Assembly (NCBI GenBank): GCA_963703285.1
Contig: OY969807.1
Location: 1,504,001-1,568,000, forward strand
DNA: 64,000 nucleotides
DNA from: an uncultured Nitrososphaerota archaeon
Lineage (GTDB): Archaea > Thermoproteota > Nitrososphaeria > Nitrososphaerales > Gagatemarchaeaceae
Reading direction: 5' to 3'
Within the stretch, counting starts at the first letter, position 1, and each line of letters begins with the position of its first letter. The notes below the pieces were generated by a model, which worked only from the letters and a program-made list of their open reading frames with translations, was not told the origin of the DNA and ran no database searches. The position numbers were made by a program, and so were the translations under genes. Shown one piece after another: positions 31,939 to 60,309 of the stretch.

Positions 31939-31960
31939 GGGGTTCATCGCGCCTCCGCCG
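31939..31960 (+). repeat. Repeat R6 (3'-truncated)
   Basis: GGGGTTCATCGCGCCTCCGCCG. Confidence 0.85.
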
Positions 31961-32009
31961 TCGCGGTCCCTTTCCCTGAAGGGGCGAGCGACCGGACTTC
32001 CTGCACGTA

Positions 32010-32396
32010 CTACTTCCAGACGGTCTTGACCGGGGTGTCGCCTAGTCCCCAGCTCCATGAGACCCTGGGCCTGATGCGGATGTACTCGCCTTTGCCGAAC
32101 TCCCCCTCGTGCGTCACGATATCGGCCACACCGTTCACCCTTATCCCGCGCACCTTCCACGGGTCCACCGAGACGAGGTCGTCTATGACCAGCGCGACCT
32201 GCCGGTTCCCGCTCTTGACGTTGAGGTACCTTGGGGTGGACCTGAGGATCTTCTGCTTGACGCTCCCGATGTAGAAGCACTTGCCGTCGAACTCGAAACC
32301 CACGGGAGCGACGTTCGGCTTGCCCTTTGTGGTGGCCGTGGCTACCCTCACGAGAAGCTGCGACTTCAGGTACTTGAGCTCCTCCTTGTTGAACAT
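32010..32396 (-). CDS. PPOX-class F420-dependent oxidoreductase
   Basis: RVATA...PNVAPVGF, VALVIDDLVSVDPWKVRGIRVNG, SWSWGL. Confidence 0.9.
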   Translation of the reverse strand: MFNKEELKYLKSQLLVRVATATTKGKPNVAPVGFEFDGKCFYIGSVKQKILRSTPRYLNVKSGNRQVALVIDDLVSVDPWKVRGIRVNGVADIVTHEGEFGKGEYIRIRPRVSWSWGLGDTPVKTVWK

Positions 32397-32551
32397 GTAC
32401 GCAGTCGAGACTGGCTCTCTAAAGACATCTTCGGTGGGCGGTGCATTCGAAGGAGACTTCCGACCTCCTTCCACACGATCACTGCTGGCCAGAGGTTCCG
32501 CATTCGCTGGCCGAAAAGATGAAATCTTATGGGCGTCCGGACCATCAAGGC

Positions 32552-33031
32552 TTGGTAGACGCCACCGACCTCACGCTGTTAGCGACGTTGGTGCAGACTT
32601 CCGTGATCACCCTGACGCTGCTCGTCTTCATCTTCCAGTTCCGCAGCCAGGAGAAAGCGATTCGGGAATCATCATATCAGAACCTCCTCGGAAGGTACAA
32701 CGAATACGTCATGTCAGGCTCGGGCACAGACGACCAGCTCCTCGCGCGGCTCTTCTCAGAAGAGGCCGAGAGGCCCTCCCTCCAAGAGCTGGCCGTGGTT
32801 CGCCGCCTCATGATAGCCTATGGGATCATCGAGGAAGCCTATGAGCTCTACGAGAAAGGATGGATCGATGAAGAGACTTGGGAGCAGTGGGCTGCATGGC
32901 TAAGAGTCATCTCCAAGCACCCCCGGTTCCGCACTCTCCACGTCGGAGCCACCGGCATGTTCGATAAGGGTTTCCAAGCCTACGTCTCGCGGATAATCGA
33001 AGCGAAGGGCTCATCCGAGCCAAGAAAGTAG
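32552..33031 (+). CDS. Membrane-anchored hypothetical protein
   Basis: N-terminal TM helix ending FQFR; EEAYELYEKGWIDEETWEQW. Confidence 0.65.
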   Translation: MVDATDLTLLATLVQTSVITLTLLVFIFQFRSQEKAIRESSYQNLLGRYNEYVMSGSGTDDQLLARLFSEEAERPSLQELAVVRRLMIAYGIIEEAYELYEKGWIDEETWEQWAAWLRVISKHPRFRTLHVGATGMFDKGFQAYVSRIIEAKGSSEPRK

Positions 33032-33058
33032 ATCACGGTCAGGCTGCTTGAATTCGTG

Positions 33059-33110
33059 ATGCTAGGGTTCATCGCGCCTCCGCTGAGGCATCTCATCCAC
33101 ATGTTGGGCT
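33059..33110 (+). repeat. Repeat R7 (full length)
   Basis: ATGCTAGGGTTCATCGCGCCTCCGCTGAGGCATCTCATCCACATGTTGGGCT. Confidence 0.92.
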
Positions 33111-33336
33111 CGGGTGATTCGCCAGCCACCTTGGGCGCTCTCCTGCGGAGGCGTTCGAACGAGCTCGAATCAGACGGAAGAGCCAAAAGCCCACCCCTCT
33201 TCTCAGGCGAGACGACGATGACGATGGCAGACGGGGAAATCCTCGGGATTCAACGGGGTCGTTGAAAGACGGACCCCGTCTCCTGCCGCCGGTCCGACCC
33301 ACTCCCGGGGCGTAATCCCCGAGGTCGACAGCCGGA

Positions 33337-34125
33337 TTGAAGTTCCTGCCCTTAGAGCACGGACTCATCGTCTCGTGGTTCGTCATGATAATCGGGGCTG
33401 TGCTCCTGTCCACCGAGTTCAGCTCCTACGGAATCGGTTTGATAATCGTACTCCTGCCCACGCTGTTTGTCTACGACAGGGTCATCGTAGGTCTGAGACT
33501 CTGGTCGCTGGGGAAGGTAGACTTCCGCGGCTTGCTGGTCGAGAAGGTGGGGGCTCTGGCCCTCGTCATCCTCTCGGTAGCGCTCGCCTACATGGCCGCG
33601 GGTCTGCTGCTGAGCTTGATGCCTTGGATTCCCGTGTTGGTGACGGCCGTCATCCTGGTCCTGGTGGGAATCGCCTTCCGCTATCTGAAGGAGAGGCACA
33701 TGGTCACGAGGGCCGTCTCGACCCTGATGGTGAACTCGCAATTCCTTCTAATCAACTCAGCCCTCGGCGACACAGTCACGAGTTTCGAGATCATCGCCTT
33801 CACCATGATGTCGCTGGTCGCCCTGCTTCTCGTCGCGAACGTCGTCCAGCTGGTAGAGACCGAAAGGATCCGGGTGGGCCCTTCCAGGCGAGGTTCAATC
33901 GGGGACGACCCACCCTTCTTCGTGGCGGGAGTGGCCATCGCAGCGGTAATCTCCCTGGCTGTCTCAGAGTTCTACCTATCCTTCGTCATCCTGCTGGTGG
34001 CAATCGAGGGTGCATGCCGTTATGGGCTGCGGGGGAGGACGATGAGGACCAGGGGGATTCTCTCGTCGTGCGTCGAGGCGCTAGCGCTGCTGCTCCTCCT
34101 CCTGCACCTCCATGGAATCCTGTAG
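33337..34125 (+). CDS. Multi-pass membrane protein (YwiC-like)
   Basis: LPLEHG..SW N-terminal motif, about 9 TM helices. Confidence 0.65.
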   Translation: MKFLPLEHGLIVSWFVMIIGAVLLSTEFSSYGIGLIIVLLPTLFVYDRVIVGLRLWSLGKVDFRGLLVEKVGALALVILSVALAYMAAGLLLSLMPWIPVLVTAVILVLVGIAFRYLKERHMVTRAVSTLMVNSQFLLINSALGDTVTSFEIIAFTMMSLVALLLVANVVQLVETERIRVGPSRRGSIGDDPPFFVAGVAIAAVISLAVSEFYLSFVILLVAIEGACRYGLRGRTMRTRGILSSCVEALALLLLLLHLHGIL

Positions 34126-34174
34126 GTCTTTCGCGCCGGAAATGGCCAACGCTCTCGGGAAGTTCAGAAAACAG

Positions 34175-34216
34175 GCGATACTAGGAATCCCCTGCGGCTC
34201 CGCCGAGGCGTCTTCA
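34175..34216 (+). repeat. Repeat R8 (degenerate)
   Basis: GCGATACTAGGAATCCCCTGCGGCTCCGCCGAGGCGTCTTCA. Confidence 0.55.
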
Positions 34217-36024: not shown

Positions 36025-36069
36025 GGGGTCATTGCGCCTCCGCCGGGGCATTTCATCCATACGTTTGGC
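36025..36069 (+). repeat. Repeat R9 (full length)
   Basis: GGGGTCATTGCGCCTCCGCCGGGGCATTTCATCCATACGTTTGGC. Confidence 0.92.
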
Positions 36070-36119
36070 GACATTAGCGTGTCTCCCCTAGGATTCTGGA
36101 TCTGTCGAGCAGCGAAGTC

Positions 36120-36446
36120 TCACGGAAAGCGCCCTTCGTTTGTCCCATTATGGCGTGAGGCTGTAGCTCGTGCCTTACGAACCGCCCAATCCAAGAAGGC
36201 CATGTTTGCGATGTCAACATCTTCCTTTGTTTCGTCAAGCGTTGCATCGTCGTGGTCAGGGAATCTCTCGGTAATCTCGTGGAGGAAGCGGTCTTGAATT
36301 GATTCGAGAGGATAGTTTCTCCAATCGAAGTCATCCCTTGTTACGCTGTCTTTTCCCCATTTATCGGCGCGGAGTCTGAACTTCGCGAGCATCTCTCCCT
36401 TGAACTGATTCAGTTTCTGTTCGAGAACCGACTCGTCCTCCATCAT
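36120..36446 (-). CDS. Hypothetical protein, all-alpha NTP pyrophosphohydrolase (MazG-like) candidate
   Basis: HEITE...KEDVDIANMAFL acidic ExxE/ExxD pattern; own TTAAA box at ~36470. Confidence 0.55.
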   Translation of the reverse strand: MMEDESVLEQKLNQFKGEMLAKFRLRADKWGKDSVTRDDFDWRNYPLESIQDRFLHEITERFPDHDDATLDETKEDVDIANMAFLDWAVRKARATASRHNGTNEGRFP

Positions 36447-36485
36447 GCAGGATTTTAGGAACGGGTACGATTTAAGCTTATTCAG

Positions 36486-36519
36486 GCCGTATATGGGGTT
36501 CGTTGCGCCTCCGCTCGGG
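36486..36519 (+). repeat. Repeat R10 (3'-truncated or degenerate)
   Basis: GCCGTATATGGGGTTCGTTGCGCCTCCGCTCGGG. Confidence 0.85.
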
Positions 36520-36621
36520 ATGATCACCGGTTGGTGTTCTCTACTCTGTCGTCAAACAAGGATCTAAAAGATTGACAACCTGAGATTCAGTGTCTAACCG
36601 ATTAATACGGCCCGGTCGCAG

Positions 36622-37413
36622 ATGATAGTCATGGGGAATCCAAGTCAACGAGCGTGGTCTGCCGATGAAGCCGAGGCTTGGAACCTGCTCATTCCCATGC
36701 AGCGGACGGCCAAGGAGGTCGGCTTCCTGCTGTGGGTGTTCAGACGGTTTGGCCGTGAAGGCGTTCGTGAGGTGCTGGACCTGGGGTGCGGAGCCGGTCG
36801 ACTCGCCATCGAACTGTCGGCAAAGGGATACGCCGTCACGGGTGTGGACAGGTCCCCGGCCATGCTGAAGGTAGCGAGGCGCAACGCCGACGAGAGGCAG
36901 GTTGAGCTCAGGCTCCTCAGGTCCCGGCTGAGCGAACTCAAGGTCACGGGGAGGTTCGACGCGGCCTACAGCGTCCAGGACCCGTTCAACTACCTGCTCG
37001 AGGAGGACGAGCTCTCGAGCTCGCTCACAAGGCTGAGGTCCCTGTTGCGGCCCGGCGGAGTGCTGGTCGTCGACATCATGAACTTCGCTACGCTGTACGG
37101 CGGGTGGAAGAGGGTCCTCAGGCAGACCAGCAGGGGCAAGAACTGGACGATCCGCAGGCGCGTATCGCTCGAGGTGGACGACGTGAACATGCTCTGGTAC
37201 CACAGGCTCGAGGCCGCGATGGTCCTCGGCGGAGGAAGGAGACGCTGGGAGGAGACGCACGTGCTGAGGATGTGGACGTTCCCGGAGTTCAGGAGCCGGT
37301 TGATCGCCAACGGCTTCTCCGCCGTCCACCTCTTCGGGGGGCTGAAGGCAGGCGCAAGGGAAGCGACCACTCATGCCCCTCGGCTGGTGATCGTAACTAC
37401 CAGGGCTCCCTGA
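36622..37413 (+). CDS. Class I SAM-dependent methyltransferase
   Basis: VLDLGCGAGR, GVDRSPAML, LRPGGVLVVD. Confidence 0.92.
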   Translation: MIVMGNPSQRAWSADEAEAWNLLIPMQRTAKEVGFLLWVFRRFGREGVREVLDLGCGAGRLAIELSAKGYAVTGVDRSPAMLKVARRNADERQVELRLLRSRLSELKVTGRFDAAYSVQDPFNYLLEEDELSSSLTRLRSLLRPGGVLVVDIMNFATLYGGWKRVLRQTSRGKNWTIRRRVSLEVDDVNMLWYHRLEAAMVLGGGRRRWEETHVLRMWTFPEFRSRLIANGFSAVHLFGGLKAGAREATTHAPRLVIVTTRAP

Positions 37414-37423
37414 GCATTCCTGC

Positions 37424-37454
37424 GCCAATGCTAGGGTTCATTGCGCCTCCGCCG
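37424..37454 (+). repeat. Repeat R11 (3'-truncated)
   Basis: GCCAATGCTAGGGTTCATTGCGCCTCCGCCG. Confidence 0.92.
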
Positions 37455-37475
37455 CGGATATCAAGTCTCTATCAG

Positions 37476-37856
37476 TCATTTAATCATGATTGCTTCGTCC
37501 AAACCACGGAAGTGCTCGTCCCCGGTTATGACCTTCATCCCTCTTACTCTAGCCGTTGCTAGGACTACGGAGTCCACCAGTCCCCAACCCCTTACCCGCG
37601 ATCTTCGTTCAGCACTGATCTTTCCGGCCATCTCCGCCGTCTCCTCGTCGAGCGGCGCGAGAGCAGAGGTCGCCTTCAGAAACTTGAGCCTTTCCCTGTG
37701 GTCAAGATTCTCTCTGGTGTACTTGTCGATGAATTCGGCTATGACGATGGTGGGAGTGAAGGCTTCGCCGCTTTCGATGTAGGTCTTCGCCTTCTCTCCC
37801 GCTAGGCTTCCGGCGAAGTATTCAATCCAGGAGAACGTATCCAGTATGTAGATAGC
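37476..37856 (-). CDS. vapC: PIN-domain toxin VapC (no in-frame canonical start; missed by the ORF track)
   Basis: My translation gives YILDTFSWIEYFAGS...IVIAEF...WGLVDSVVLATA...ITGDEHF; the GTG overlapping the antitoxin stop is out of frame. Confidence 0.85.
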   Translation of the reverse strand, partial: AIYILDTFSWIEYFAGSLAGEKAKTYIESGEAFTPTIVIAEFIDKYTRENLDHRERLKFLKATSALAPLDEETAEMAGKISAERRSRVRGWGLVDSVVLATARVRGMKVITGDEHFRGLDEAIMIK

Positions 37857-37859
37857 CGG

Positions 37860-38060
37860 TCACCTCTGGAATTCCTCATGTTCATGCTCTGAAAGATGGA
37901 CCGGTTTGGACCTGTCGACGCCGAACATGCTCTTGGGTAAGCGCTCTGCCTTCTCTATGAGAGCGTTGATCGTCTGGTCGAGGCTTTGTGCCCCCTCTTC
38001 TTTCATGATTCTCCTCAATCTATCCCGGGTCGACTCCTTGACCGCTATGGTCGTGGTCAT
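37860..38060 (-). CDS. vapB: VapB-type antitoxin
   Basis: MTTTIAVKESTRDRL...SLDQTINALI. Confidence 0.85.
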   Translation of the reverse strand: MTTTIAVKESTRDRLRRIMKEEGAQSLDQTINALIEKAERLPKSMFGVDRSKPVHLSEHEHEEFQR

Positions 38061-38107
38061 AATGGATGTATCATATAGACTATAATATATATTCACCGCG
38101 CTTTCTC

Positions 38108-38137
38108 GCCATGCTAGGGTTCATTGCGCCACCGCCG
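38108..38137 (+). repeat. Repeat R12 (3'-truncated)
   Basis: GCCATGCTAGGGTTCATTGCGCCACCGCCG. Confidence 0.92.
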
Positions 38138-38210
38138 AAGAATAACGCGCCGACAACACTCGCATGGTCGCTTCCTGTGCACGGGAAGACGTTTTATTTC
38201 GCAATCGTAG

Positions 38211-38816
38211 GTGGTCCGCATAATGCAACGGCTGGGCCCCGAGGACTACCAGAGCAAGAGACACATCAGAAAGCTCCTGCGCCTCGCAGGGGCGTCCAGG
38301 CGAGATGTGTTTTACGACCTGGGATGCGGGCTGGGCCAGCTCTGCATCGTAGCCGTGGCCGAGTTCGGAGTGAAGAAGGCGGTCGGGATAGAACTGCACA
38401 GGGGCCGGGCGGCGAAAGCGGCGGAGCACGTGCAGGGACTGGGTCTGTCGGACCGCATAGAGATTTGGAACGAGGACTATACCGAGTCGGACCTCCACGA
38501 GGCTACAATCCTGTATTGCGGGCATAGCGAAGAGGAAGAGGACGTCGCACGTTTTGAGAGCGAGCTGAGGAGGGGCTCCAGGTTCGTGAGCCTGTTCCTT
38601 CCCTTCGTCGGAGTGGTGCCTTCGGCGGTGGACTACCCCTTTTACGTCATGGACCTGCCTTTCAAGAGGACGGGGGACGTCTCTCTGTGGATATCGAAGG
38701 TGCTCGCCCGGAAGGCTTCCGTTAACGATCTCTACGAGGAGCTCGACAACGACAGGGAGTACCGGTACGACAAACGCGCCTTCCGGCGGCTCATGAACCA
38801 AAGATTCCGGGTCTAA
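38211..38816 (+). CDS. SAM-dependent methyltransferase (DOT1/protein MTase-like)
   Basis: DVFYDLGCGLG..CIVAV.EFGVKKAVGIE. Confidence 0.85.
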   Translation: MVRIMQRLGPEDYQSKRHIRKLLRLAGASRRDVFYDLGCGLGQLCIVAVAEFGVKKAVGIELHRGRAAKAAEHVQGLGLSDRIEIWNEDYTESDLHEATILYCGHSEEEEDVARFESELRRGSRFVSLFLPFVGVVPSAVDYPFYVMDLPFKRTGDVSLWISKVLARKASVNDLYEELDNDREYRYDKRAFRRLMNQRFRV

Positions 38817-38879
38817 GGCCCAGACTTCACGACCCGCCGATCAAACCAATCAGCTGGGATTGCGCTTCCGTAGAGGCCA

Positions 38880-38911
38880 GCCATGCCAGGGTTCATTGCG
38901 CCTCCGTCGGG
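38880..38911 (+). repeat. Repeat R13 (3'-truncated)
   Basis: GCCATGCCAGGGTTCATTGCGCCTCCGTCGGG. Confidence 0.9.
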
Positions 38912-38919
38912 TAAATCGT

Positions 38920-39924
38920 TTACCCGAGCTTCAGCAGTCTTGCGGCATTGCCGCCCAGGATCTTCTCCTTCGCTCCGTCGCTGATGTCCAGCTTATTCAC
39001 GCGTTCGACGCAGTGGTCCAGGTCGCCAATCTGGTGAGGGTAGTCGCTCCCCATCACCAACTTCTCCGGGCCCCAGAAGGCCAGCGACGACGCGAGGACG
39101 TCGGAGTCGTAACAGACCGTGTCGAGCCATATTCGCTTGAAATAGTCCGATGGAGGCCGCGGGATGTTCTTCTTGGTCTCAGGATACACCCTGTAGGCCG
39201 CCTCTATCCGCCCGCGCAGGTAGGGGAAGACTCCCCCCGTATGCGTGGCCACCAGCTTGAGTCTTGGAAGCCGCTCCATGACGCCGCTGAAGACGAGCCT
39301 CAGGATGGCGAGGCTCGTGTCCACCCCGAAACCCATGATGGGCACCAGCCTGTAGTCTTCCATCCCCGTGACATTGACGGGGGAGGTCGGGTGGATGAAG
39401 ATGGGGACGTCTAGCTTGACCGCCTTCTCGTACACCTGCATGAACTCCTTGCTGTCGATGGGCTTTCCTGCGACGTTGGAGAAGATCATGGCGCCGCGCA
39501 GACCCCGCTCCTTCACCGCCCTCTCTAACTCCTCCGCAGCCGCCTGGGGGTCCTGCATTGGGAGTGCAGCTAGGGCGACGAACTTGTCGGGGAACTTCTC
39601 CATTATGTCGCCGTAGCTGTCGTTGGTCAGTCTAGCCAGCCTGATGCCCAGGCCGGGTTCCTCCCGTTCGACCCCGGGAGTGGTCAGCGTGATCACCTGC
39701 ATGTCGACCCCGCACTTTGCCATGGCCTTGACTCGGGCATCGAGGTTGACGTGACCGGATACCACCACGTTGTAGTCGCCGGCGTACCTGAGAAGGACCA
39801 CGCCTCTGGAGCCGGTCTCCAGGGTCGCGTGGCCCCGGGAGTCCTTCAGCCCGTCAAGGTATGCCTTGGGGTAAAAGTGGCTATGGAAGTCGATGATCAG
39901 AGGATGGTTCGGAGCCAGAAGCAT
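38920..39924 (-). CDS. Amidohydrolase family 2 (ACMSD-like decarboxylase)
   Basis: IIDFHSH, PIFIHP, THTGG, MGSDYPH, ILGGNAARL. Confidence 0.92.
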   Translation of the reverse strand: MLLAPNHPLIIDFHSHFYPKAYLDGLKDSRGHATLETGSRGVVLLRYAGDYNVVVSGHVNLDARVKAMAKCGVDMQVITLTTPGVEREEPGLGIRLARLTNDSYGDIMEKFPDKFVALAALPMQDPQAAAEELERAVKERGLRGAMIFSNVAGKPIDSKEFMQVYEKAVKLDVPIFIHPTSPVNVTGMEDYRLVPIMGFGVDTSLAILRLVFSGVMERLPRLKLVATHTGGVFPYLRGRIEAAYRVYPETKKNIPRPPSDYFKRIWLDTVCYDSDVLASSLAFWGPEKLVMGSDYPHQIGDLDHCVERVNKLDISDGAKEKILGGNAARLLKLG

Positions 39925-39932
39925 CGGGCTCA

Positions 39933-41039: not shown

Positions 41040-41046
41040 GGCCAGT

Positions 41047-46138: not shown

Positions 46139-46165
46139 AGCTCAGACAACGTTTCCAAACGACGA

Positions 46166-52183: not shown

Positions 52184-53743
52184 CTGAACCTCGGAATCCT
52201 GCTTGAGCACACAGCTTCAGAGCATCGGGACAGAGTAGCACTGAGGTACGGGGAAAGCACCCTGAACTACGGCGAACTCAGTAGTCGGGTGAACGGCCTA
52301 GCCAACGCGCTTGAGGACCTGGGGATAAAGAGGGGAGACAGAGTGTCCATCATCCAGCACAACTGCCCTCAGCTGATGGAGTCCATCCTCTGCTGCTTCA
52401 GGGCCGGGTTCGCAGCCGTGCCGATAAATGTGAGGCTCACCGCGAACGAGTTCTCCTATATCGTCAAGAACTCGAGGTCTTCGGCTCTGATTTTCGGGCC
52501 GGAGTTCGCGGAGGTCGCCCGTTCAATCTCGGCGGAGATGCCGTCCCTCAGGTTGATCTCCGTCTCGGGCAACGATAATCAGGTATTGCCGTACGAGAAG
52601 CTGATTGCCGGCTATCCGGAAGAGAGACCTAGGACCGAGGTAACCCTAGATGACGTCGCCTGGCTGTTCTACACTTCCGGGACGACGGGGAGGCCCAAGG
52701 GGGCGATGCTGACCCAGAGGAACCTTTTGGTGATGACAATGAACTTCTTCGCCGACATCTTTCCCCTTCGATCGACCGACGTCGGCCTGCACGCGGCGCC
52801 GCTGACCCATGGGAGCGGGCTCTATGCTATCCCGTTCATCGCCAGGGGCGCAACGAACGTGATTCTCAGGTCCAAGAGCTTCGACCCCGACCTCCTCCTG
52901 GGCTCGGTGGAGAAGGAGGGCATCTCCATACTGCCCTTCTTGACACCCACGATGATCAAGCTTCTTCTGCTGTCCCCACGCATCCGGGAATACAACCTTG
53001 GCGGGCTCAAGTGCATAGTCTACGGAGGGGCTCCGATGTACGTCGAGGACATGAAGGAGGCGGTGAGAAGGTTCGGGAAGATCCTGGTTCAGATATACGG
53101 TCTGGGAGAGGCTCCGATGACGATAACGTATCTCCCGATGGAGGACCACGCGGCCGAATCGAACGGGAGCAGTGGGAGGAGGCTGCTATCGGCGGGAATT
53201 CCGCGCACGGACGTCGAGGTCGGGATAGTCGACGACGAGGACCGACCTCTCCCGCCAGAGAAGCACGGGGAGATTGTTGCCAGAGGTGACGTGGTCATGA
53301 AGGGCTACTGGGATGACGAAGGAGCCACTGCCAAGACCGTCAGGGATGGATGGCTCCACACCGGTGACGTCGGGTTCATGGACGAGGCGGGCTACGTCTA
53401 CATCATGGACCGTAGCAAGGACATGATCGACAGCGGAGGCGCAAAGATCTACCCGAGGGAGGTGGAGGAGGTCATCCTCCAGCATCCCGCCGTACGGGAG
53501 GTCGCGGTCTTCGGGGTGCCTGACCGAATCTGGGGCGAATCTGTCAAGGCGATAGTCGTGGTGAAACCGAGGACCGTTGCCACCGAGGCGGAGATAATCG
53601 ACTTCTGTCGGGCGCGCATCGCTAGCTACAAGAAGCCCAAATCCGTCGAGTTCGTTGACTCCATACCCAAGAACGCCTACGGAAAGGTACTGAAGCGCGA
53701 GCTGAGGGAGAAGTACTGGGTTGGGCTGGAACGCAAGGTCTAG
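52184..53743 (+). CDS. Long-chain acyl-CoA synthetase / AMP-binding enzyme
   Basis: YTSGTTGRPKG, QIYGLGE, WLHTGD, PKNAYGKV; the frame extends to CTG at 52184 (LNLGILLEHT). Confidence 0.93.
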   Translation: MNLGILLEHTASEHRDRVALRYGESTLNYGELSSRVNGLANALEDLGIKRGDRVSIIQHNCPQLMESILCCFRAGFAAVPINVRLTANEFSYIVKNSRSSALIFGPEFAEVARSISAEMPSLRLISVSGNDNQVLPYEKLIAGYPEERPRTEVTLDDVAWLFYTSGTTGRPKGAMLTQRNLLVMTMNFFADIFPLRSTDVGLHAAPLTHGSGLYAIPFIARGATNVILRSKSFDPDLLLGSVEKEGISILPFLTPTMIKLLLLSPRIREYNLGGLKCIVYGGAPMYVEDMKEAVRRFGKILVQIYGLGEAPMTITYLPMEDHAAESNGSSGRRLLSAGIPRTDVEVGIVDDEDRPLPPEKHGEIVARGDVVMKGYWDDEGATAKTVRDGWLHTGDVGFMDEAGYVYIMDRSKDMIDSGGAKIYPREVEEVILQHPAVREVAVFGVPDRIWGESVKAIVVVKPRTVATEAEIIDFCRARIASYKKPKSVEFVDSIPKNAYGKVLKRELREKYWVGLERKV

Positions 53744-53749
53744 GCCGCT

Positions 53750-54696
53750 TCAGGTAGACTCTGCACCAAACGATGGAATCATGCTATCCGCAAAGGCCTC
53801 CATCTGATGGATGGGGTCGAATGACGCAAACCTGACGATAATCGTTTCTGCACCAGCGTCGCGGTAGCCTTCTATTGTCCGGCGGCAATCGTCCATGTTG
53901 CCGAAGACGCCGAACCTGTCGATTGACGGAAGTTTCGAATTGTAGTAGGTGTTCAAGAACACCTCAGCCTCGTTGTGCGAATCTGCACGGTCGTCCTTCA
54001 TGTTTATTGTCAAGTAGAACGCGCCATGAATGGAACGAGGCGTCCTGCCAGACTGTTCCATCATCTGAATAATCTTGTCCTTGTCCTCTCGATACTTCTC
54101 CGGACCAATCTCTATCGGAAGCCATCCGTCCCCGAATCTCGCCGTGCGCCTGAGAGCCTGCTCGCTGAATCCGCCTATCCAGATTGGAGGTCCGCCACTC
54201 TGCTCGGGTTCGAGGGGAAGGGTGACGCCTTCAAGGTGATAGTGTCTCCCCGAGAAGGTGACCGCCTCCCCGCTCCAGAGCCTCTTGAGGATTTGGACCA
54301 TCTCGTCCAACCTGCCTCCCCGATGCGCGAAGGGAACCCGTACTGCCTCGTATTCCTTCGCGATCCGGTCTGGCCCGACTCCCACGCCAATGATTGTCCT
54401 TCCCTCGGAGATGACATCAAGGGAAGATATTGACTGAGCCAGGAGCACGGAGTCCTGAGAGGAGCGACGAGGACCGCCACCCCGAGCTTGACCGCCTTCG
54501 TCCGTGCCGAGACCGCAGCCAGCGTGGAGAAGGGTTCCAACCGAGGCGTCGAAAGAAGTCTGTCTCCGACCCAGACGGAACCGAAGGACAGCTCCTCGGC
54601 GCGTTCTGCCATCCTAGTTACCAGGCCGATGTCCGGCTTCCCGCCGGTGACGCTTCCGTCGACGGGCAGCAACACGCCGAAGTTGAGCGGCTTCAT
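53750..54696 (-). CDS. LLM-class oxidoreductase, frameshift at ~54449
   Basis: FGSVWVGD, KLGVAVLVAPLR then LLAQSISSLD..SEGR, PPIWIGG, GDGWLP in the next frame. Confidence 0.85.
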
Positions 54697-54699
54697 CGG

Positions 54700-55164
54700 C
54701 TATCGGTTTGGTTTCCGTGGTCTCCGAGGTGCCTTCGGAGCCGGCTTGAACACGAGTCTGACCGTGCCTGGAGTGAGCTTTGCACAGGATTCGAAATCAA
54801 CCACAACCTCTTCTCCCATGCGGATATCGTCCGGATTGCCTCCTCCAGCCAGTATCCCGAGCACCGACGGGCCTTCTCGGAGGCGAACGACACCCACCAC
54901 ATAGGGCGAGATGTGCGCAAGCTCAGGGGGTGCGATGTGCACCACGGTGAAGGTCGTCAATTTCCCTCTCCCGGACAGACGGATGGTATTGAGCCTGGAT
55001 CCGTGGCAGCTTGGGCAGAGCGTCGTCGGCGGAACCAGAAGGGCGCCACATGCCCTGCATTTCGAGGCGCTGAGGACGCCCTTTCCCAGCGCGTCGTAGA
55101 ATGCACTGACTGTACCCTCGAGCCGCTCCGCGCTCCGGATGGTCTTGGCTACGACCTTGCGCAT
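54700..55164 (-). CDS. DUF35 zinc-ribbon/OB-fold protein (thiolase partner)
   Basis: CRACG...PP...CPSC, TFTVVH, PYVVGVVRLREGP. Confidence 0.9.
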   Translation of the reverse strand: MRKVVAKTIRSAERLEGTVSAFYDALGKGVLSASKCRACGALLVPPTTLCPSCHGSRLNTIRLSGRGKLTTFTVVHIAPPELAHISPYVVGVVRLREGPSVLGILAGGGNPDDIRMGEEVVVDFESCAKLTPGTVRLVFKPAPKAPRRPRKPNR

Positions 55165-56330
55165 ATCGTCACCACCGCAGTTGCGCCTGAGCCTCCAAGG
55201 TTGTGCGTCAGGCCGAGCTCGACGCCTTCGACCTGCCTCTGACCTGCCAGACCGTTAAGCTGAAGGTACATCTCATAGAGCTGGGCCGTGCCCGTGGCAC
55301 CTACCGGGTGTCCCTTCGACTTTAGCCCGCCACTGACGTTGACGGGGATTCTCCCGTCCCTCGTGGTCTCTCCGTCGCGGACCATCATCTGACCCTTGCC
55401 CTTCTTGCAGAAACCCAGGTCCTCGTAGGCGATAAGCTCCGAGCATGTGAAGCAGTCGTGAACCTCGGCAAGCTGTATCTCACCCGGGCTCACCTTGGCC
55501 ATGCGATACGCCTCCCGCGCCGCATCTACGTTCGCCCTGAGCGTCACGGTCGAGTAGTCCTTCTCCGCCGCCAGGATGCTGTCGCAGGCCAACCCCTGGC
55601 CTATCACGTCAATCCGAGTGTCAGAGATTTGGCGAGCTACCTCAGGCCTGGCCAGGACCATGCACGCCGCACCGTCGGAGATTGGCGCGCAGTCGTAGAG
55701 GCGGATGGGCCACGAGACGATCCTGGCGTTCAGGGCATCCTCGAGCGTGATTTCCTTGTTGAACTGGGCCTTTGGGTTGAGGACCCCGTTCTTGTGGTTC
55801 TTGACGGCGATGGCGGCGAAGTCCTCGAGGGTGGACCCGTACTTCTTCATGTGCGCGTTCTCGACGAGCCCGAAGAATCCCGGAAATGTCAGCCCGTTCC
55901 TTTGATCCATCTGGGCATCAGCGGCCTCGGCGATGAACTTGGTAGCTTCCGGTGTCGTCACCGTGGTCATCTTCTCCGCACCCCCCACCAGCACGACGTC
56001 GTACATGCCCGCCATTATGGTCGCGAGCCCGAACCTCAGCGCCGCCCCGCTCGACGCGCAGGCCGCTTCGACGCGTATTCCAGGGTGGGGCAGGAGACCT
56101 GTCCATGTGACCGCGGCGGCACCCTGGTGCCCCTGGTTCTCGAAGCCCTCGCTCATGGTGCCGATGAACGCCGCATGAATCGTCTTCGGATCGAGTTTTG
56201 GCGCCCTACCGAAAGCCTCTCCCACAGCCTCAAGGAAGAGCTCTCTTGTTCCGAGACCCTGCCTGACTCCGAACTTTGACATCCCCGCCGAGACTATCGA
56301 AGCCAGAGGTCTCCTTCTGTTTCTGGTCAA
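55149..56330 (-). CDS. Thiolase family protein (SCP2-type)
   Basis: VEAACASSG, KNH.NG..NP.AQ, EVHDCF, NVSGGLKSKGHPVGATG, HNLGG. Confidence 0.93.
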   Translation of the reverse strand: MTRNRRRPLASIVSAGMSKFGVRQGLGTRELFLEAVGEAFGRAPKLDPKTIHAAFIGTMSEGFENQGHQGAAAVTWTGLLPHPGIRVEAACASSGAALRFGLATIMAGMYDVVLVGGAEKMTTVTTPEATKFIAEAADAQMDQRNGLTFPGFFGLVENAHMKKYGSTLEDFAAIAVKNHKNGVLNPKAQFNKEITLEDALNARIVSWPIRLYDCAPISDGAACMVLARPEVARQISDTRIDVIGQGLACDSILAAEKDYSTVTLRANVDAAREAYRMAKVSPGEIQLAEVHDCFTCSELIAYEDLGFCKKGKGQMMVRDGETTRDGRIPVNVSGGLKSKGHPVGATGTAQLYEMYLQLNGLAGQRQVEGVELGLTHNLGGSGATAVVTICARS

Positions 56331-56443
56331 CGTACTTGGTTTGTCGTCACCACCTACCTCTATTTTAGGGTGGGTCTCTCAGAAGGCTTTGGCAGCGAAG
56401 CGATATGTCCGTTATCACCATGTAAAGCCCCCGCACCTGCAGC

Positions 56444-57328
56444 TCAGGTCGAAAAAACGGAGGTGAGGTGCGTGGTCTTGGAAACTTGACGGTAGTGCTC
56501 CGATAGACGGTTCGTCATTGCCCCCGGGCATTGCTCTCCGATGGTTCGGCCGTCAATCTCACGGACTGGAACCACCCCGTCTATCCCCGTCCCCGTGAGA
56601 AACACCTCGGACGCTGAGTACAGGTCCTGGACCGTTAGCGCCTCCTCGGTTGTCCCAATCCCCAGTTCCTTGGCTATCTCGATGATAGTGGCCCGTGTCA
56701 CTCCAGCGAGACACGAAGTGGTGGGAGGGGTCACCACGGCGCCATTCTTGACTAGGAAGATGTTCGCCCCAGTGGCCTCGGCCACGGACCCGTTGGAATC
56801 GAGCATGACGGCGTCATCGAATCCGCCCTCTTTGGCCTCGATTTTCGCCAGGATATTGTCCAGGTAGTTGATCGACTTTATTTTCGAATCAATTGAGATG
56901 GGTGACTTCTTCCTGACCGATGAGGTGATCAGTCTCAAGGGCTCCTGTCCAAGCATCGGCTGCACCTCTACGGCGGATATGATTATGGTTGACTTGGGAC
57001 ATAAAGTAGGGTCGAGCCCCGGCTTACCTACTCCCCGAGTCATGATTACACGGACTTGGGCGTTTCTGACAGCGTTCCTCCTCACCGTCTCCACGATGGA
57101 CATCTTCATCTGCTCCTTGGTCAGCGGTGGGGTCAAGTGGATGCCCCTTGCGGATTCGAACAGCCGGTCTATGTGGTCCTCGAGCCTGAAAATGAATCCG
57201 TCGTAGACCCGAGCGGTATCATAGACTGCATCCCCGTATAGCAGAGCGTGGTCCCAGACAGAGATTCGCGCATCATCACCCTTCAGGAACCTACCGTCGA
57301 TGAAGACAATCGAGTCCTGAAATGACAC
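56444..57328 (-). CDS. ilvE: Class IV (branched-chain) aminotransferase
   Basis: DHALLYGD, HIDRL, KSINYL, EATGANIF, LAGVTR, EVFLTGT. Confidence 0.88.
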   Translation of the reverse strand: MSFQDSIVFIDGRFLKGDDARISVWDHALLYGDAVYDTARVYDGFIFRLEDHIDRLFESARGIHLTPPLTKEQMKMSIVETVRRNAVRNAQVRVIMTRGVGKPGLDPTLCPKSTIIISAVEVQPMLGQEPLRLITSSVRKKSPISIDSKIKSINYLDNILAKIEAKEGGFDDAVMLDSNGSVAEATGANIFLVKNGAVVTPPTTSCLAGVTRATIIEIAKELGIGTTEEALTVQDLYSASEVFLTGTGIDGVVPVREIDGRTIGEQCPGAMTNRLSEHYRQVSKTTHLTSVFST

Positions 57329-57482
57329 AATCGCAGTCTTCTGGCAGAATAGAAAAACCTATGCAAGTCGCGGTTGCGTCGCTCGAGTCAACGAAAGGAC
57401 CGGCCGATTGCTTCATCGGGTTCACACACATTTGCAGCTACGCTAAACTTGTGGAGCCGACAGTTTGAGGAATCGATGTTAC

Positions 57483-57537
57483 GCCACGTATCGGGTTCAT
57501 TGCGCCTCCGCCGGGGCATTTCATCCACACGTTGGGC
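57483..57537 (+). repeat. Repeat R18 (full length, perfect core)
   Basis: GCCACGTATCGGGTTCATTGCGCCTCCGCCGGGGCATTTCATCCACACGTTGGGC. Confidence 0.97.
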
Positions 57538-57881: not shown

Positions 57882-58305
57882 CGCCTCAGTCATCGTGAAG
57901 TGGTTCGTGGAGGAGGAGCACTCGGACCGGGCGCTGCGACTCAGAGATGACCACGTGGAACAGAGGGTCAGAGTGGTCATCCCCTCGCTCGCTGGCTACG
58001 AGGTCCTGAACGCGCTCCGATACTCGGGGAGCTTCGGCGCGGAGGACCTTGTCGAGGTCTCGAGGGCCCTTGATGGATACCAGTTCATGGAGGTCGGCAT
58101 GAGCGGCCGCTGCGCGGAGGAGGCGGTGAGGATCGCCCTAGACTACGGGGTAACCGTCTACGATGCAGCCTACCTGGCCATAGGGAAGCTGAGGGGGCTC
58201 GAGGTATACACGGCGGACGACGAACTGCTGCGCAAGGTGGAGAAGCTCGGGTTCGTGCGGCACGTGAAGGAGTACGAGGGTGGGAATCAAGCGCGCCGTG
58301 GGTAG
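57862..58305 (+). CDS. vapC: PIN-domain toxin VapC
   Basis: VADASVIVKWFVEE, YEVLNAL, TVYDAAYLA, YTADD; the stop TAG lies inside repeat R19. Confidence 0.92.
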   Translation: MSAIVADASVIVKWFVEEEHSDRALRLRDDHVEQRVRVVIPSLAGYEVLNALRYSGSFGAEDLVEVSRALDGYQFMEVGMSGRCAEEAVRIALDYGVTVYDAAYLAIGKLRGLEVYTADDELLRKVEKLGFVRHVKEYEGGNQARRG

Positions 58306-58324
58306 GGTTCATTGCGCCTCGCCG
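58295..58324 (+). repeat. Repeat R19 (3'-truncated)
   Basis: GCCGTGGGTAGGGTTCATTGCGCCTCGCCG. Confidence 0.9.
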
Positions 58325-58339
58325 CGAAAGGCGAGTGGC

Positions 58340-59077: not shown

Positions 59078-59226
59078 GGAATCCTACCCTGTGACCCGTT
59101 ATGCCCTAAGAAGTTTGCGACAGCAGCTTCCATTCTCCCAAGGATGGCCTTTCATGGATTAGAGGATTGCGCCTTCGCGTGTCATTGAGCCGCAGAATAG
59201 GATTCGACTTCTGGCCTAGATGTGTC

Positions 59227-59252
59227 GTATAGGGTTCATTGCGCCTCCGCCG
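59227..59252 (+). repeat. Repeat R20 (3'-truncated)
   Basis: GTATAGGGTTCATTGCGCCTCCGCCG. Confidence 0.92.
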
Positions 59253-59260
59253 AGACGCAC

Positions 59261-59704
59261 TCATCGCTTCTGATTCCGGCTCTCCAGTAGCTGCTTAAGA
59301 CCCGCCAGCATCATCTCCCAATTCTTCTGAGAGTAATCGCGGGCTTGTTCGGTGTCATTGTTGTCCTGGGTCAGCGAAACGGACGTGCCTTCGCCATTGC
59401 GCGACAGCTCAATGGTCACGGTATGGTAGTTCTCGGGGATGTCAGGCAGACCGGACAGAGGACTGAAGTGGGTGTAGCGAACTATGCGCTCTGGTTTCAG
59501 CTCGAGAATGGTCCCTCTGTCCTCGTATGACTTCCCCTTCCAGACGCCCTTCCAGGCGATTGGGCCGCCTTCCTTCCATTCTGAAACCACCTCGGTGCCG
59601 AACATGTACTCCTTGATCACTTGCGGGTTGACGAGGGCGTCCCATACGGCCGCGACGGGAGCATTAATCTTCGTGCGCGCCTTCGCTACGAGTCCTTTGG
59701 CCAT
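59261..59704 (-). CDS. SRPBCC/AHSA1-like domain protein
   Basis: INAPVAAVWDALVNP, NWEMMLAGLKQLLE. Confidence 0.9.
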   Translation of the reverse strand: MAKGLVAKARTKINAPVAAVWDALVNPQVIKEYMFGTEVVSEWKEGGPIAWKGVWKGKSYEDRGTILELKPERIVRYTHFSPLSGLPDIPENYHTVTIELSRNGEGTSVSLTQDNNDTEQARDYSQKNWEMMLAGLKQLLESRNQKR

Positions 59705-59740
59705 CGGGCCATTCTTTGGATGGTGCGTCATAAGACCTTC

Positions 59741-59798
59741 GCCATGCATAAGGGTTCATTGCGCCTCCGCCGGGGCATTTCATCCACACGTTGGGCTA
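59741..59798 (+). repeat. Repeat R21 (full length, perfect core)
   Basis: GCCATGCATAAGGGTTCATTGCGCCTCCGCCGGGGCATTTCATCCACACGTTGGGCTA. Confidence 0.97.
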
Positions 59799-60020
59799 TA
59801 GTAAGTCGGTGAACTCGTCCACAGTTAAACCGGCATCGGCTATGATGGCCCTAAGAGTGCCCTTCGCTAGCTCCTTGTGGTTGGGGACGGAGATTCGGCG
59901 GTGCGGCGGCTCCACTTGTCTTAGGATCATGTGGCTCCCCGTCTGATGGTCCACAGCGTATCCAGCTTTCGAGAGAGCCTTGACCACTTCCCTGCCCGAG
60001 ATGACGGGAAGCTTAGGCAC
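59796..60020 (-). CDS. hicA: HicA toxin
   Basis: LPVISGREVVKAL..GY...QTGSH, VPNHKELAKGTL.AII; the stop overlaps the end of R21. Confidence 0.93.
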   Translation of the reverse strand: MPKLPVISGREVVKALSKAGYAVDHQTGSHMILRQVEPPHRRISVPNHKELAKGTLRAIIADAGLTVDEFTDLL

Positions 60021-60225
60021 TGACCTCGACCACTTCCTCGTCTATCGAGGGTGGTATCGGCTCATGGTGCTTCTTGAGGCTGGCGAGGTAACCGTCGATG
60101 GCATCCTTGATGTTGGCCAGCGCTTCCTTCCGGGTTCTTCCTTCAGAGATGCAACCCGGCAGCGAGGGTACCTTGGCCACGAAAGCGCCGTCCTCGTCCT
60201 GCTCGATGGTTACCCTGTACTTCAC
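60013..60225 (-). CDS. hicB: HicB antitoxin
   Basis: YRVTIEQDEDG.FVA.VPSLPGCISEG.T..EAL.NIKDAI. Confidence 0.93.
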   Translation of the reverse strand: MKYRVTIEQDEDGAFVAKVPSLPGCISEGRTRKEALANIKDAIDGYLASLKKHHEPIPPSIDEEVVEVSA

Positions 60226-60278
60226 GTTCCGAAAAGCAGGATTGCTCAGTTAAAATCCTTTGGCCAGTTGATGCTTGA

Positions 60279-60309
60279 GCCATGTATAGGGTTCATTGCG
60301 CCTCCCGGG
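60279..60309 (+). repeat. Repeat R22 (3'-truncated)
   Basis: GCCATGTATAGGGTTCATTGCGCCTCCCGGG. Confidence 0.92.

Follow-up and report, generated by a model that had tools for sequence, protein, structure and literature searches.

Copies of the 23S rRNA 3′ end and its trailer separate gene cassettes in an uncultured Gagatemarchaeaceae archaeon

Integrons and CALINs, including archaeal integrons, place short same-strand sites between mostly single, unrelated accessory genes, reshuffle these cassettes between species at the sites and carry a tyrosine recombinase at one end of some arrays while many others are orphans, in all of which the locus described here resembles them (Ghaly et al., 2022, PMC9668308). 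Integrative elements, for their part, re-use one integration site, with att cores down to 8 bp in Thaumarchaeota (Krupovic et al., 2019, PMC6563490; Badel et al., 2021, PMC8371274). A third point of reference is the processing stem of archaeal pre-rRNA, with its bulge-helix-bulge motif (PMC7714728; 10.64898/2026.03.23.713588).

Here, dozens of unrelated accessory genes are stacked behind an rRNA operon, much like an integron made from different parts. Our preferred reading, to which we give a probability of roughly two-thirds, is that this is a cassette array at the 23S 3′ end whose sites are copies of the 23S end and trailer, keeping a core while their arms decay, exchanging within the left arm and driven by a recombinase.

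A site array behind the rRNA operon

The window, meaning the whole 64,000-nt stretch of DNA that was analysed, comes from an uncultured Gagatemarchaeaceae archaeon (Nitrososphaerota) from soil, and the interval of interest within it is 31939-60309. The left arm of the repeat, GGGTTCATTGCGCCTC, occurs 20 times in the window at ≤3 mismatches, throughout on the + strand, against a shuffle expectation of 0.63. Fifteen left-arm copies lie in the interval and, with a diverged full copy at 39937, make 16 site copies there. The sites and two cassette features of the window are as follows.

25676-25697, +: diverged site copy; left arm with 3 mismatches, then CGCCTGG, without right arm
28435-28449, +: partial site; TTGCGCCTGCGCCGG retained, left half GGGTTCA substituted
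28888-28909, +: site copy without right arm
31139-31189, +: diverged full site copy; 4 left-arm mismatches, right arm present
31940-31960, +: site copy; last similarity is CGCCG
33065-33109, +: full site copy; left arm, CGCTGA, right arm
36025-36069, +: full site copy
36496-36517, +: site copy; right arm strongly diverged (CGCTCGGGATGATCACC...)
37434-37454, +: site copy stopping past CGCCG; the homologous cassette of G021 has a recognisable right arm (17/23)
38117-38137, +: site copy stopping past CGCCG; methyltransferase cassette downstream
38211-38816, +: SAM-methyltransferase-like cassette gene, whose orthologs in G014 and G009 occupy an ordinary locus
38889-38911, +: site copy (CGTCGGG) without right arm, adjoining the amidohydrolase cassette
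39937-39982, +: diverged full site copy within the over-long ORF 38920-40275
40695-40718, +: site copy stopping past CGCCGGGG; then a MazE/PIN cassette (40803-41442, +)
41454-41469, +: left arm alone; junction common to 5 genomes with 5 different left neighbours
42096-42140, +: near-full site copy, the left border of the 15.4-kb unit
42140-57328: 15.4-kb metabolic gene block between two sites
57493-57537, +: full site copy, consensus
58305-58325, +: site copy stopping past (C)GCCG
59232-59252, +: site copy stopping past CGCCG
59752-59796, +: full site copy; a HicA cassette gene (59796-60020, -) terminates within it
60289-60310, +: site copy with decayed right arm; homologous cassettes of G014 and G021 have an arm of the same length, canonical in G021 (23/23)
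61062-61106, +: full site copy
61966-62011, +: diverged full site copy
62816-62860, +: full site copy
63652-63696, +: full site copy

The array starts exactly at the 23S 3′ end and is 62 kb long, with 43 sites, all on the + strand, and 42 units (median 858 bp, range 291-15,397). Cassettes are mostly single unrelated accessory genes, for example toxin-antitoxin pairs and glyoxalases. The 15.4-kb block encodes hydrolases, deacetylases, SHMT-like proteins, luciferase-like monooxygenases, an acyl-CoA synthetase, a thiolase and an aminotransferase; in the amidohydrolase cassette, the Pfam domain covers 38920-39894 of ORF 38920-40275 on the minus strand. Elsewhere in its gene content, the genome holds two identical reverse-transcriptase genes. 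For the repeat itself, searches returned no Rfam family at gathering score, no tandem array and no tRNA, and REP-, MITE- and CRISPR-type repeats were ruled out by the lack of a palindromic fold and the irregular spacing (291-15,397 bp).

Within the genus, 19 of 22 further genomes contain the 16-mer, as do two other genera; it is absent from the 16 other families of the order, each represented by one genome. In G014 the array extends over about 126 kb and comprises more than 75 sites. Isolated site pairs also flank single units elsewhere in the chromosome.

Cassettes shared between species differ in order and context, and their homology is limited by the sites. Among 344 junctions, 63 pairs have the left flank alone in common, 30 the right flank alone and none both; in G009, two cassettes stand in swapped order. 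This site-bounded reshuffling bears out the original prediction's view of the repeats as recombination junctions of a gene-cassette array, each joining a conserved site to cassette-specific DNA. Part of the neighbour changes could stem from deletions between direct repeats by homologous recombination, which would likewise put the exchanges within the common core. No genuine excision joint turned up in the contigs from four public runs.

The site and the pre-rRNA processing stem

The right arm, TTCATCCACACGTTGGGCTATAG, is complementary to the final ~23 nt of 23S rRNA, and the left arm, CGCCGG and the GCCATGYATA flank make up the 3′ trailer of the 23S. A local covariance-model search placed the last of the 2987 positions of the 23S model at L015:3839, within the last array site, the left arm of which lies at L015:3812-3827; the whole-locus search had missed this end because of an 898-nt intron-like insert in the 23S locus. 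The first site also adjoins the 23S 3′ end in G018 and G050, and the fetched 23S flank contains a single site copy in G048 (a complete genome of another genus) and two in G045.

The trailer is predicted to pair with the spacer upstream of the 23S as a bulge-helix-bulge processing stem, and the duplex is strongly supported. The rRNA-sense transcript of the last site and the spacer 5′ of the 23S co-fold at -77.8 kcal/mol (z = -9.0), an energy that none of 200 shuffles reached. When read by hand, this duplex has a 3-4-3 bulge-helix-bulge in which a GCGC helix separates an AAU from an AAG bulge, the bulges being placed slightly differently by the minimum-energy fold. Conservation of the spacer copy extends to G014, G021 and G001, and GTGTTC appears in the spacer and both sites of G045, a case of covariation. 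As single-stranded DNA, three full copies (six folds) folded no better than shuffles (z -1.2 to +2.0), which leaves the imperfect hairpin once proposed at CCGCCG unconfirmed.

By the same hand reading, the core kept among site copies (about -1 to 21/23) covers helix a, the two bulges, the central GCGC helix and helix b. Its end coincides with the end of the stem helix, which accounts for the clustering of breaks described below, and the coincidence of core and helices may point to an RNA-level reason for conservation.

An RNA function could in principle be primary: transcripts reading through from the rRNA operon would pair at their sites with the spacer, in cis or in trans, the splicing endonuclease would free or circularise cassette RNAs, and DNA recombination would be secondary. 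The agreement of the kept core with the stem's helices and bulges up to the end of helix b, the covariation in G045 and the location of the mapped exchange point at the AAU bulge would all fit, as would the position of the longest ORF on the rRNA strand in 23 of the 37 units of ≤2 kb and the semi-conserved TATRCATGGC after the site, from which short-leader mRNAs would result. We nevertheless consider this alternative unlikely, since each operon supplies a single spacer strand, internal sites cannot pair mutually and fold no better than shuffles, the gene strand bias is weak, and there are further sites in inverted segments and, at a distance from the rRNA operon, in arrays and single-cassette pairs. 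The public sequencing runs located were all of DNA.

Still more speculative is the idea that the array hijacks ribosomal RNA biogenesis and serves as a platform for the expression and capture of genes. Cassettes would then sit behind the cell's strongest promoter with a functional half of the 23S bulge-helix-bulge motif at every junction, where the splicing endonuclease would cut or trans-splice read-through transcripts paired to the spacer and so free short-leader cassette mRNAs. With an exchange point in the AAU bulge and the reverse-transcriptase gene pair, an RNA-intermediate origin of the junctions would be conceivable on such a platform.

Arm loss and the point of exchange

The right arm is absent from 10 of the 16 copies in 31939-60309, which retain GGGTTCATTGCGCCTC and about CGCCG. 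Similarity breaks directly past CGCCG at 31940, 37434, 38117 and 59232 and past TC-GCCG at 58305; it breaks 1-3 nt from the end of CGCCG at 38889, 40695, 36496 and 60289, and 5-6 nt before that end, directly past the left arm, at 41454. Our larger set comprises 344 copies with ≤2 mismatches from G000, G014, G001, G008, G021, G020 and others, and has the right arm in 116 copies and lacks it in 228. Here the break falls 0-11 nt past the left arm in 199 of the 228 arm-less copies, 3-7 nt past it in 77. Conservation along the site drops steeply at positions 22-24. Arm loss near CCGCCG, as originally described, thus holds for the window copies, whereas in the larger set the breaks are spread over 12 bases and show neither a single peak nor a sharp point.

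The truncations are not assembly artefacts: those at 37434, 40695 and 41454 recur in independent assemblies of other species, and 36496, 38889 and 41454 are bridged by short-read contigs of public runs (possibly including the source sample). Genome-wide, the right arm has 17 matches at ≤4 mismatches, all of them within the array and each with a left arm ahead (14 at ≤3 mismatches, the other three, at 31139, 39937 and 61966, more diverged). The left arm is kept while the right is lost, as had been proposed. The same genome-wide search found no right-arm-only copy, the reciprocal product that secondary-site recombination at CCGCCG would leave.

What follows the truncated copies had been taken for unrelated DNA, but often it is a decayed arm. 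Junction pairs with homologous right-hand cassettes are discordant for the right arm in 24 of 73 cases, those of window copies 37434 and 60289 among them, and 16 of these 24 are also discordant in spacing, which indicates frequent indels. Arm-less copies have a weak residual right-arm similarity (9.86 vs 8.72 in controls), and relatives of 37434 and 60289 retain the arm at conserved spacing.

Exchange was mapped from just 20 left-flank and 18 right-flank families of related junctions. The best fit lies at left-arm position x = 7-8, with ≤8 in 1960 of 2000 bootstraps, ≥16 in just 17 and a weaker second optimum at positions 1-3. CGCCGG co-segregates with the right-hand cassette, as does the right half of the left arm; (A)TTGCGCCTCCGCCGG is retained and GGGTTC lost in 12 of 221 core matches; and the cassette at 41454 has no CGCCGG in any of five genomes, although its left neighbour differs in each. 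From these sequence comparisons, the exchange point probably lies inside the left arm, near the step from GGGTTCA to TTGCGCC, i.e. within GGGTTCATTGCG, and not at CCGCCG. The mapped point coincides with the AAU bulge of the processing stem.

The original prediction had made the truncated copies hybrid sites, formed by recombination at CCGCCG with secondary sites in incoming DNA and thus scars of de novo gene capture rather than results of decay. In the window, four or five copies do stop exactly past CGCCG. For the amidohydrolase cassette (at 38889), the 22 further genomes of the genus yielded no DNA homolog, and the terminator-like hairpin of this cassette begins directly past CGTCGG. The methyltransferase cassette also resembles a captured resident gene, the ordinary locus of the two sister species (G014 and G009) being empty in this genome, and by sequence fits such a capture. 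The gene's homology to non-array copies begins 40-98 nt away from the break instead of at it. That distance, the exchange mapped to the left arm, the junction at 41454, the spread of breaks over positions 0-11 in 228 arm-less copies, the arms kept by relatives and the missing reciprocal copies largely refute the model as a general rule, and we regard it as improbable. The edge past CGCCGG is better read as the limit of constraint than as a crossover, a view that forms part of our preferred reading and shares its probability.

Candidate recombinase and known systems

The likely enzyme, on a weak assignment, is an Xer-like tyrosine recombinase with a C-terminal zinc ribbon, a clade of which lies adjacent to small arrays in relatives. 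The clade comprises six loci (support 100/100), with sites downstream in five. The order is recombinase, DnaJ-domain membrane protein, first site, and the first site follows the recombinase gene by 597-679 nt in four loci; in the sixth locus, the contig ends 842 nt past the gene. Members of the array-linked clade were found in 3 of the 41 family genomes searched and in two reached another way, one copy being frameshifted and another N-terminally truncated. The assignment is weak because other tyrosine recombinase groups likewise lie near sites. No recombinase adjoins the large main arrays of G000 and G014, and PF00589 has no match anywhere within the G000 array. With the recombinase absent from this genome, either lost or never present, the 62-kb array is an orphan.

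Two named families were tried and rejected. Against IntI (TIGR02249, cut-off 265 bits), the best match of the own genome scored 23.2, the array-linked recombinases 23.5-24.1 and that of G000 40.3; against archaeal XerA (NF040815, cut-off 220 bits), the array-linked clade scored 48.3-48.6 bits and the G000 protein 96.1. We take archaeal XerA to be the closest named family and 4A8E to be the nearest solved structure.

No dedicated recombinase would be needed if the array, once foreign array DNA had been taken up, grew and shrank through homologous or microhomology-mediated recombination. Large arrays without a recombinase alongside and the frequent indels speak for this, as do exchanges inside the shared core, which homology-driven events would give. 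This is a very doubtful account, however, as it leaves unexplained the same 22-nt core around each unrelated gene, the fixed recombinase-DnaJ gene-first site layout of four loci, the break of 12 junctions at a single left-arm point and the isolated site pairs around single units elsewhere in the chromosome.

According to the preferred reading of a recombinase-driven array, cassettes would have been inserted successively by site-specific recombination at the 23S-end sequence, in the manner of integrative elements at tRNA gene 3′ ends, each insertion leaving one extra site copy. The 22-23-nt core, A-GGGTTCATTGCGCCTC-CGCCGG, would be required and is retained at almost all junctions. Inside the array, the copied 23S terminus would be functionless, a pseudo-23S end that decays or is lost, so that similarity seems to stop just past CGCCGG, where the stem helix ends. 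The zinc-ribbon Xer-like recombinase of relatives would be the enzyme acting on the array sites.

The array differs from integrons and CALINs in several respects. Its recombinase is not IntI (23.5 bits vs a cut-off of 265) and in relatives is co-directional with the cassettes rather than divergent; the site lacks the attC hairpin fold and is instead the 23S rRNA 3′ end and trailer, with the main array anchored on the rRNA operon; and units reach 15 kb. GTTGGGC at the right end of the site resembles GTTRRRY but represents the 3′ terminus of the 23S.

Elements that exploit Xer (IMEX) are known to have sites with one conserved and one degenerate side. Unlike Xer/dif, the array-linked recombinase scores 48.6 bits against the XerA cut-off of 220 and has an extra zinc ribbon, and the site lacks the palindromic form of dif.

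Compared with archaeal pre-rRNA processing stems, the array's first site would form the 3′ strand of the 23S stem (3-4-3 by hand reading), whereas here this strand is copied 40-80 times between protein-coding genes. With tandem integrative elements at tRNA and tmRNA 3′ ends, the array shares a target at the 3′ end of a stable RNA gene, duplication of the att core and part of the gene end with each insertion, and decay of the displaced partial gene copies. The repeat is indeed the target gene's 3′ end plus flank and the array starts at that gene, also in G018 and G050. The target here, however, is the 23S rRNA gene with its processing stem and not a tRNA, and the 42 successive units are single genes that carry no integrase, instead of whole integrase-bearing elements.

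Repeat copies and the extent of the array

A full copy of the repeat consists of a left arm, GGGTTCATTGCGCCTC, the hexamer CGCCGG (together a core of ~22 nt) and a right arm, TTCATCCACACGTTGGGCTATAG. Within the window there are 20 left-arm copies (≤3 mismatches), every one on the + strand, where 0.63 would be expected, and nine right-arm copies, where none would be. A search of the whole genome (2.25 Mb, one contig, with the window at 1,504,001-1,568,000) returned 41 + strand left-arm matches between 1,529,676 and 1,603,803. Including three more diverged full copies, the array totals 43 sites and 42 units, which have a median length of 858 bp and range from 291 to 15,397 bp. By our estimate, scattered left-arm matches outside the array are about as numerous as chance predicts. 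Isolated site cores far from the array lie at genome positions 32,204 (+), 1,205,614 and 1,206,574 (−), 1,331,918 (+) and 1,332,647 (−), and include a same-strand pair ~960 bp apart that resembles one cassette inserted at another chromosomal location.

The right arm is missing from 10 of the 16 copies between window positions 31939 and 60309. Similarity ends exactly after CGCCG in four of these and after TC-GCCG in one, stops a few bases from that point in four others and, at site 41454, stops directly after the left arm. The asymmetry of the original prediction, in which the left arm is kept and the right arm lost, is real, since every right-arm match in the genome (17 of 17) has a left arm in front of it. 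The imperfect hairpin that had been placed at CCGCCG fared differently: three full copies, taken on both strands, fold no more stably than shuffled sequences, and an attC-like hairpin is rejected on this result.

Several other ideas about the repeat were set aside. No known RNA family reached its gathering score in the window. A combined Shine-Dalgarno sequence and ATG was rejected, as open reading frames start from the internal ATG in ~8 of 41 copies, close to chance. A 14-6-14 Cre/Xer-like dyad around TCCGCC (9/14 by hand) was abandoned because the exchange point maps elsewhere and the sequence is 23S rRNA flank. An apparent joint of 36046 to 40696 (side 21) and loose ends in public sequencing runs reflect cross-mapping from other repeat copies; these are four DNA runs from one study with short contigs only, in which the absence of an excision product is uninformative.

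The site is the end of the 23S rRNA gene and its trailer

The array stands behind the 23S rRNA gene, which lies with the last site to the right of the window on the fetched locus L015. The gene carries two intron-like inserts:

L015:3839-8884 (genome 1,591,839-1,596,884), 23S rRNA gene
L015:5779-6154 and 6287-6835, group I intron with a LAGLIDADG open reading frame in the 23S rRNA gene
near the 23S rRNA 3' end, 898-nt insert with a partial group I match

A local search carries the 23S rRNA model through to its final position, which falls at L015:3839 within the last site of the array. A search of the whole locus had placed the 3' end at L015:4999, an artefact that ended the gene 1.1 kb too early because of the 898-nt insert. 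The right arm TTCATCCACACGTTGGGCTATAG complements the final ~23 nt of the 23S rRNA, and the 3' trailer is made up of the left arm, CGCCGG and a weakly conserved GCCATGYATA flank. Annotators should be aware that part of this "repeat family" is pseudo-23S sequence.

A search for half-sites led to an opposite-strand look-alike in the 16S-23S spacer that is conserved in four genomes. Left-half-only sites amount to one or two convincing cases in ~755 kb of arrays; the remaining matches of this kind are due to chance or are the spacer copy. In the rRNA sense, the site pairs over ~55 nt with the spacer segment immediately preceding the 23S rRNA gene (−77.8 kcal/mol; z = −9.0, with 0 of 200 shuffled partners equally low). 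The proximal 23S 3' flank was rejected as the processing partner, as its duplex is weaker and less regular (z = −3.8). Read by hand, the first half of the site-spacer pairing consists of GGGUUC/GAACCC and flank followed by an AAU bulge on the site strand, and the second half of a GCGC/GCGC helix, an AAG bulge on the spacer strand and CCGCCGGGG/CCCCGGCGG. On this hand reading, the stem has the bulge-helix-bulge geometry of archaeal pre-rRNA processing stems, a geometry described in the portions consulted of two reports (PMC7714728; 10.64898/2026.03.23.713588).

The layouts in four relatives agree with a site composed of the 23S rRNA end and trailer. The first site adjoins the 23S rRNA end in G018 and G050. 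The fetched 23S flank holds one copy in G048, a complete genome from another genus, and two in G045, equivalent to one short unit behind the first site; in G045, GTGTTC is present in the spacer and in both sites. The main array is directly downstream of the rRNA operon in the genome under study (G000) and in the relatives G014 and G021, the genomes examined at this locus. Operon-adjacent sites lie on a short contig (L036) in G001, and 23S-like sequence lies just beyond the array end in G008. Two internal sites of the G008 array (C3:1,874,157 and 1,883,986; L044-L045) carry at least 60 nt of 23S 3'-terminal sequence compared to the usual 23 nt; they represent additional partial copies of the end of the rRNA gene.

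The site is spread through the family: of 22 other genomes of the genus, 19 contain the 16-mer, as do two further genera, and it was not found in 16 other families of the order, with one genome searched per family.

Decay of the right arm and the probable point of exchange

The original prediction took the clustering of break points near CCGCCG to mark a crossover between the repeat and secondary sites. We fetched arrays from G014, G001, G008, G021 and G020 for comparison. Across 193 anchored copies, conservation is high from position −1 to 21 and drops steeply at 22-24. In a set of 344 copies (≤2 mismatches), 116 have the right arm and 228 lack it. In this larger set the end points are spread out: similarity stops 0-11 positions past the left arm in 199 of the 228 arm-less copies, and no single peak is formed. 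Arm-less copies are slightly more similar to the right arm than is control sequence (9.86 vs 8.72 of 23 positions).

Right arms decay inside the array. Among 73 junction pairs with homologous right-hand cassettes, the right arm is discordant in 24, and the spacing is unchanged in eight of these. An arm is still recognisable in relatives of the cassettes at 37434 and 60289 (17/23 and 23/23, respectively), and the arm at 60289 is equally long in G014 and G021. The core that is kept comprises both helices and the bulges of the processing stem and ends where helix b ends; the copied 23S terminus beyond it serves no purpose within the array. Decay predicts that break points will gather where a constrained core ends, and their clustering is not by itself a pointer to crossover.

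Switch points were analyzed in junction families with only one flank in common, 20 for the left flank and 18 for the right. The right-hand cassette is tracked by CGCCGG and by positions 8 and 10 of the left arm, the left-hand one by positions 0 and 6. The fit is best for a switch at 7-8, and the switch falls at or below 8 in 1960 of 2000 bootstraps. Hexamers that replace CGCCGG (AATGAT, TCCGAG, CGACGA and CTTCAT) are shared by members of the same right-flank family and not by members of the same left-flank family. In five genomes, each with a different left neighbour, the left arm stands alone at the junction of the 41454 cassette, and the remnant in G001 is TTGCGCCTC only. A crossover at CCGCCG is contradicted by these data: CGCCGG follows the right-hand cassette, and the switch point lies at 16 or beyond in only 17 of 2000 bootstraps. 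We infer an exchange inside GGGTTCATTGCG, its exact point included.

In 12 of 221 core matches, (A)TTGCGCCTCCGCCGG is kept and GGGTTC is replaced by unrelated DNA, often with a full right arm. If any junctions are true hybrids with secondary sites, these 12 are the likeliest; their break falls within the left arm and coincides with the AAU bulge, which may be a matter of chance.

Cassettes, recombinases and known systems

Unit genes include MazE/PIN and HicA modules, glyoxalases, an HxlR regulator and small proteins without a family, a content typical for cassette arrays; most cassette genes (those of 23 of 37 short units) are on the rRNA strand. Internal sites may still act at the RNA level, a possibility on which this strand sharing and the genome's two identical reverse-transcriptase genes bear. 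Features of the window's cassettes and of an integrative element elsewhere in the genome are as follows:

window 38211-38816 (+), cassette gene, SAM-methyltransferase relative
window 42096-57492, giant 15.4-kb unit, one metabolic block between two near-full sites (alpha/beta hydrolase; two polysaccharide deacetylases; SHMT-like; luciferase-like monooxygenases; AMP-binding enzyme; thiolase with OB-fold partner; class IV aminotransferase)
genome 2,002,017-2,003,078 and 2,003,225-2,003,792, G000 orthologs of the genes that flank the methyltransferase gene in G014 and G009
genome 1,627,260-1,631,845 (L001, L017, L097), 4.6-kb integrative element (zinc-ribbon tyrosine recombinase, Toprim-like protein, AAA ATPase)

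The 451-aa open reading frame at window 38920-40275 (−) is over-extended, with its Pfam amidohydrolase domain occupying residues 128-450 and a full copy of the site (39937-39982) in the supposed N-terminal part. The arm-less amidohydrolase cassette (38889-39936) has no DNA homolog in the other 22 genomes of the genus and is unique to G000.

Cassettes are reshuffled between genomes. Those common to G000 and G014 or G001 are 78-95% identical, differ in order and context, and have homology delimited by sites. Among 344 junctions, 63 pairs have only the left flank in common, 30 only the right and none both. The window neighbours 40695 and 41454 are also adjacent in G009, in reversed order. A second G014 array (C4:263,568-300,941; L026-L028) contains short segments with oppositely oriented sites, one of them holding a reversed copy of the window's MazE/PIN cassette; inversions, or insertion in both orientations, may account for this. 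Genes at window 16193-21267, to the left of where recognisable sites begin, have DNA homologs inside the G014 and G001 arrays; the G000 array may once have extended further leftward, with its junctions there since lost.

The methyltransferase gene bears on the claim that the truncated sites are scars of de novo gene capture. Two genes flank it in G014 and G009; the G000 orthologs of this pair adjoin with nothing between, and the sole G000 copy of the methyltransferase gene is the cassette. Between G000 and G014/G009 it has diverged to the same extent (71.8-75.2%) as the flanking genes (72.6-76.3%). Its similar divergence and its sole G000 copy in the array fit the relocation of a resident gene, with the direction, into the array, being the one we infer. 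The gene has other contexts in G008, G021 and G002/G004/G015. The capture claim stands in part: the methyltransferase fits a captured resident gene, but homology to non-array copies starts 40-98 nt from the break and not at it.

No integron integrase was found in the G000 genome, which encodes one PF00589 protein. This lone tyrosine recombinase was rejected as the array enzyme: it is the integrase of the 4.6-kb element and has no site nearby. The element lies beside a tRNA-like sequence with the 9-nt repeat GGCTCAGGA at either end, and occupies other loci in relatives. G000 also has two identical reverse-transcriptase genes; the equal-scoring matches, at genome 1,883,084-1,883,773 (−) and 2,041,636-2,042,325 (+), fall in 600-aa open frames and are probably copies of one retroelement. 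The release factor aRF1 gene on a further fetched locus (L016:3589-6354) contains an intein (921 aa, Intein_splicing domain).

Relatives have a distinct, well-supported clade of tyrosine recombinases of ~440 aa, with a zinc ribbon at the C terminus, that is linked to sites and would be the array enzyme. At five of six loci, downstream sites are on the cassette strand; the contig of the sixth stops 842 nt past the recombinase gene. At four loci the first site is 597-679 nt past the gene, behind a conserved gene for a DnaJ-domain membrane protein. Beside an array-linked recombinase in G050 the DnaJ gene is conserved, but the downstream sequence shows no recognisable site. Against the archaeal XerA model the clade reaches 48.6 bits (cut-off 220), against the integron integrase model 23.5 bits (cut-off 265), and its nearest solved structure is XerA 4A8E. 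It occurs in three of 41 family genomes searched, with partly broken copies, and other recombinase groups are likewise found near sites.

The main text of the Gagatemarchaeaceae genomics paper does not mention an integrase, recombinase, cassette, repeat or integron. The portions consulted of a review of archaeal tyrosine recombinases, a survey of thaumarchaeal mobile elements and an archaeal integron paper treat only tRNA-targeted elements and canonical IntI/attC integrons. The literature searched held nothing relevant on rRNA-operon integration and no description of the array under Gagatemarchaeaceae, archaeal or thaumarchaeal integrons or thaumarchaeal integrated elements.

The array is best seen as having grown by the site-specific insertion, one after another, of cassettes that lack an integrase, with the 3' flank of the 23S rRNA gene as the target. 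If so, soil Thaumarchaeota would own a large, family-wide gene-capture platform (the largest array spans ~126 kb with ~80 junctions in one genome) and a second, independent way of stockpiling accessory genes. Horizontal gene acquisition would be linked to an essential, strongly conserved target, the rRNA operon with its processing stem. The methyltransferase offers a concrete, testable case of cassette origin, because the resident gene is seen at an ordinary locus in sister species and in the array here. On this reading the array follows the same logic as tRNA-targeting integrative elements. Its architecture is that of an integron, from which it would differ in its recombinase and in its site, borrowed from the end of the 23S rRNA gene.
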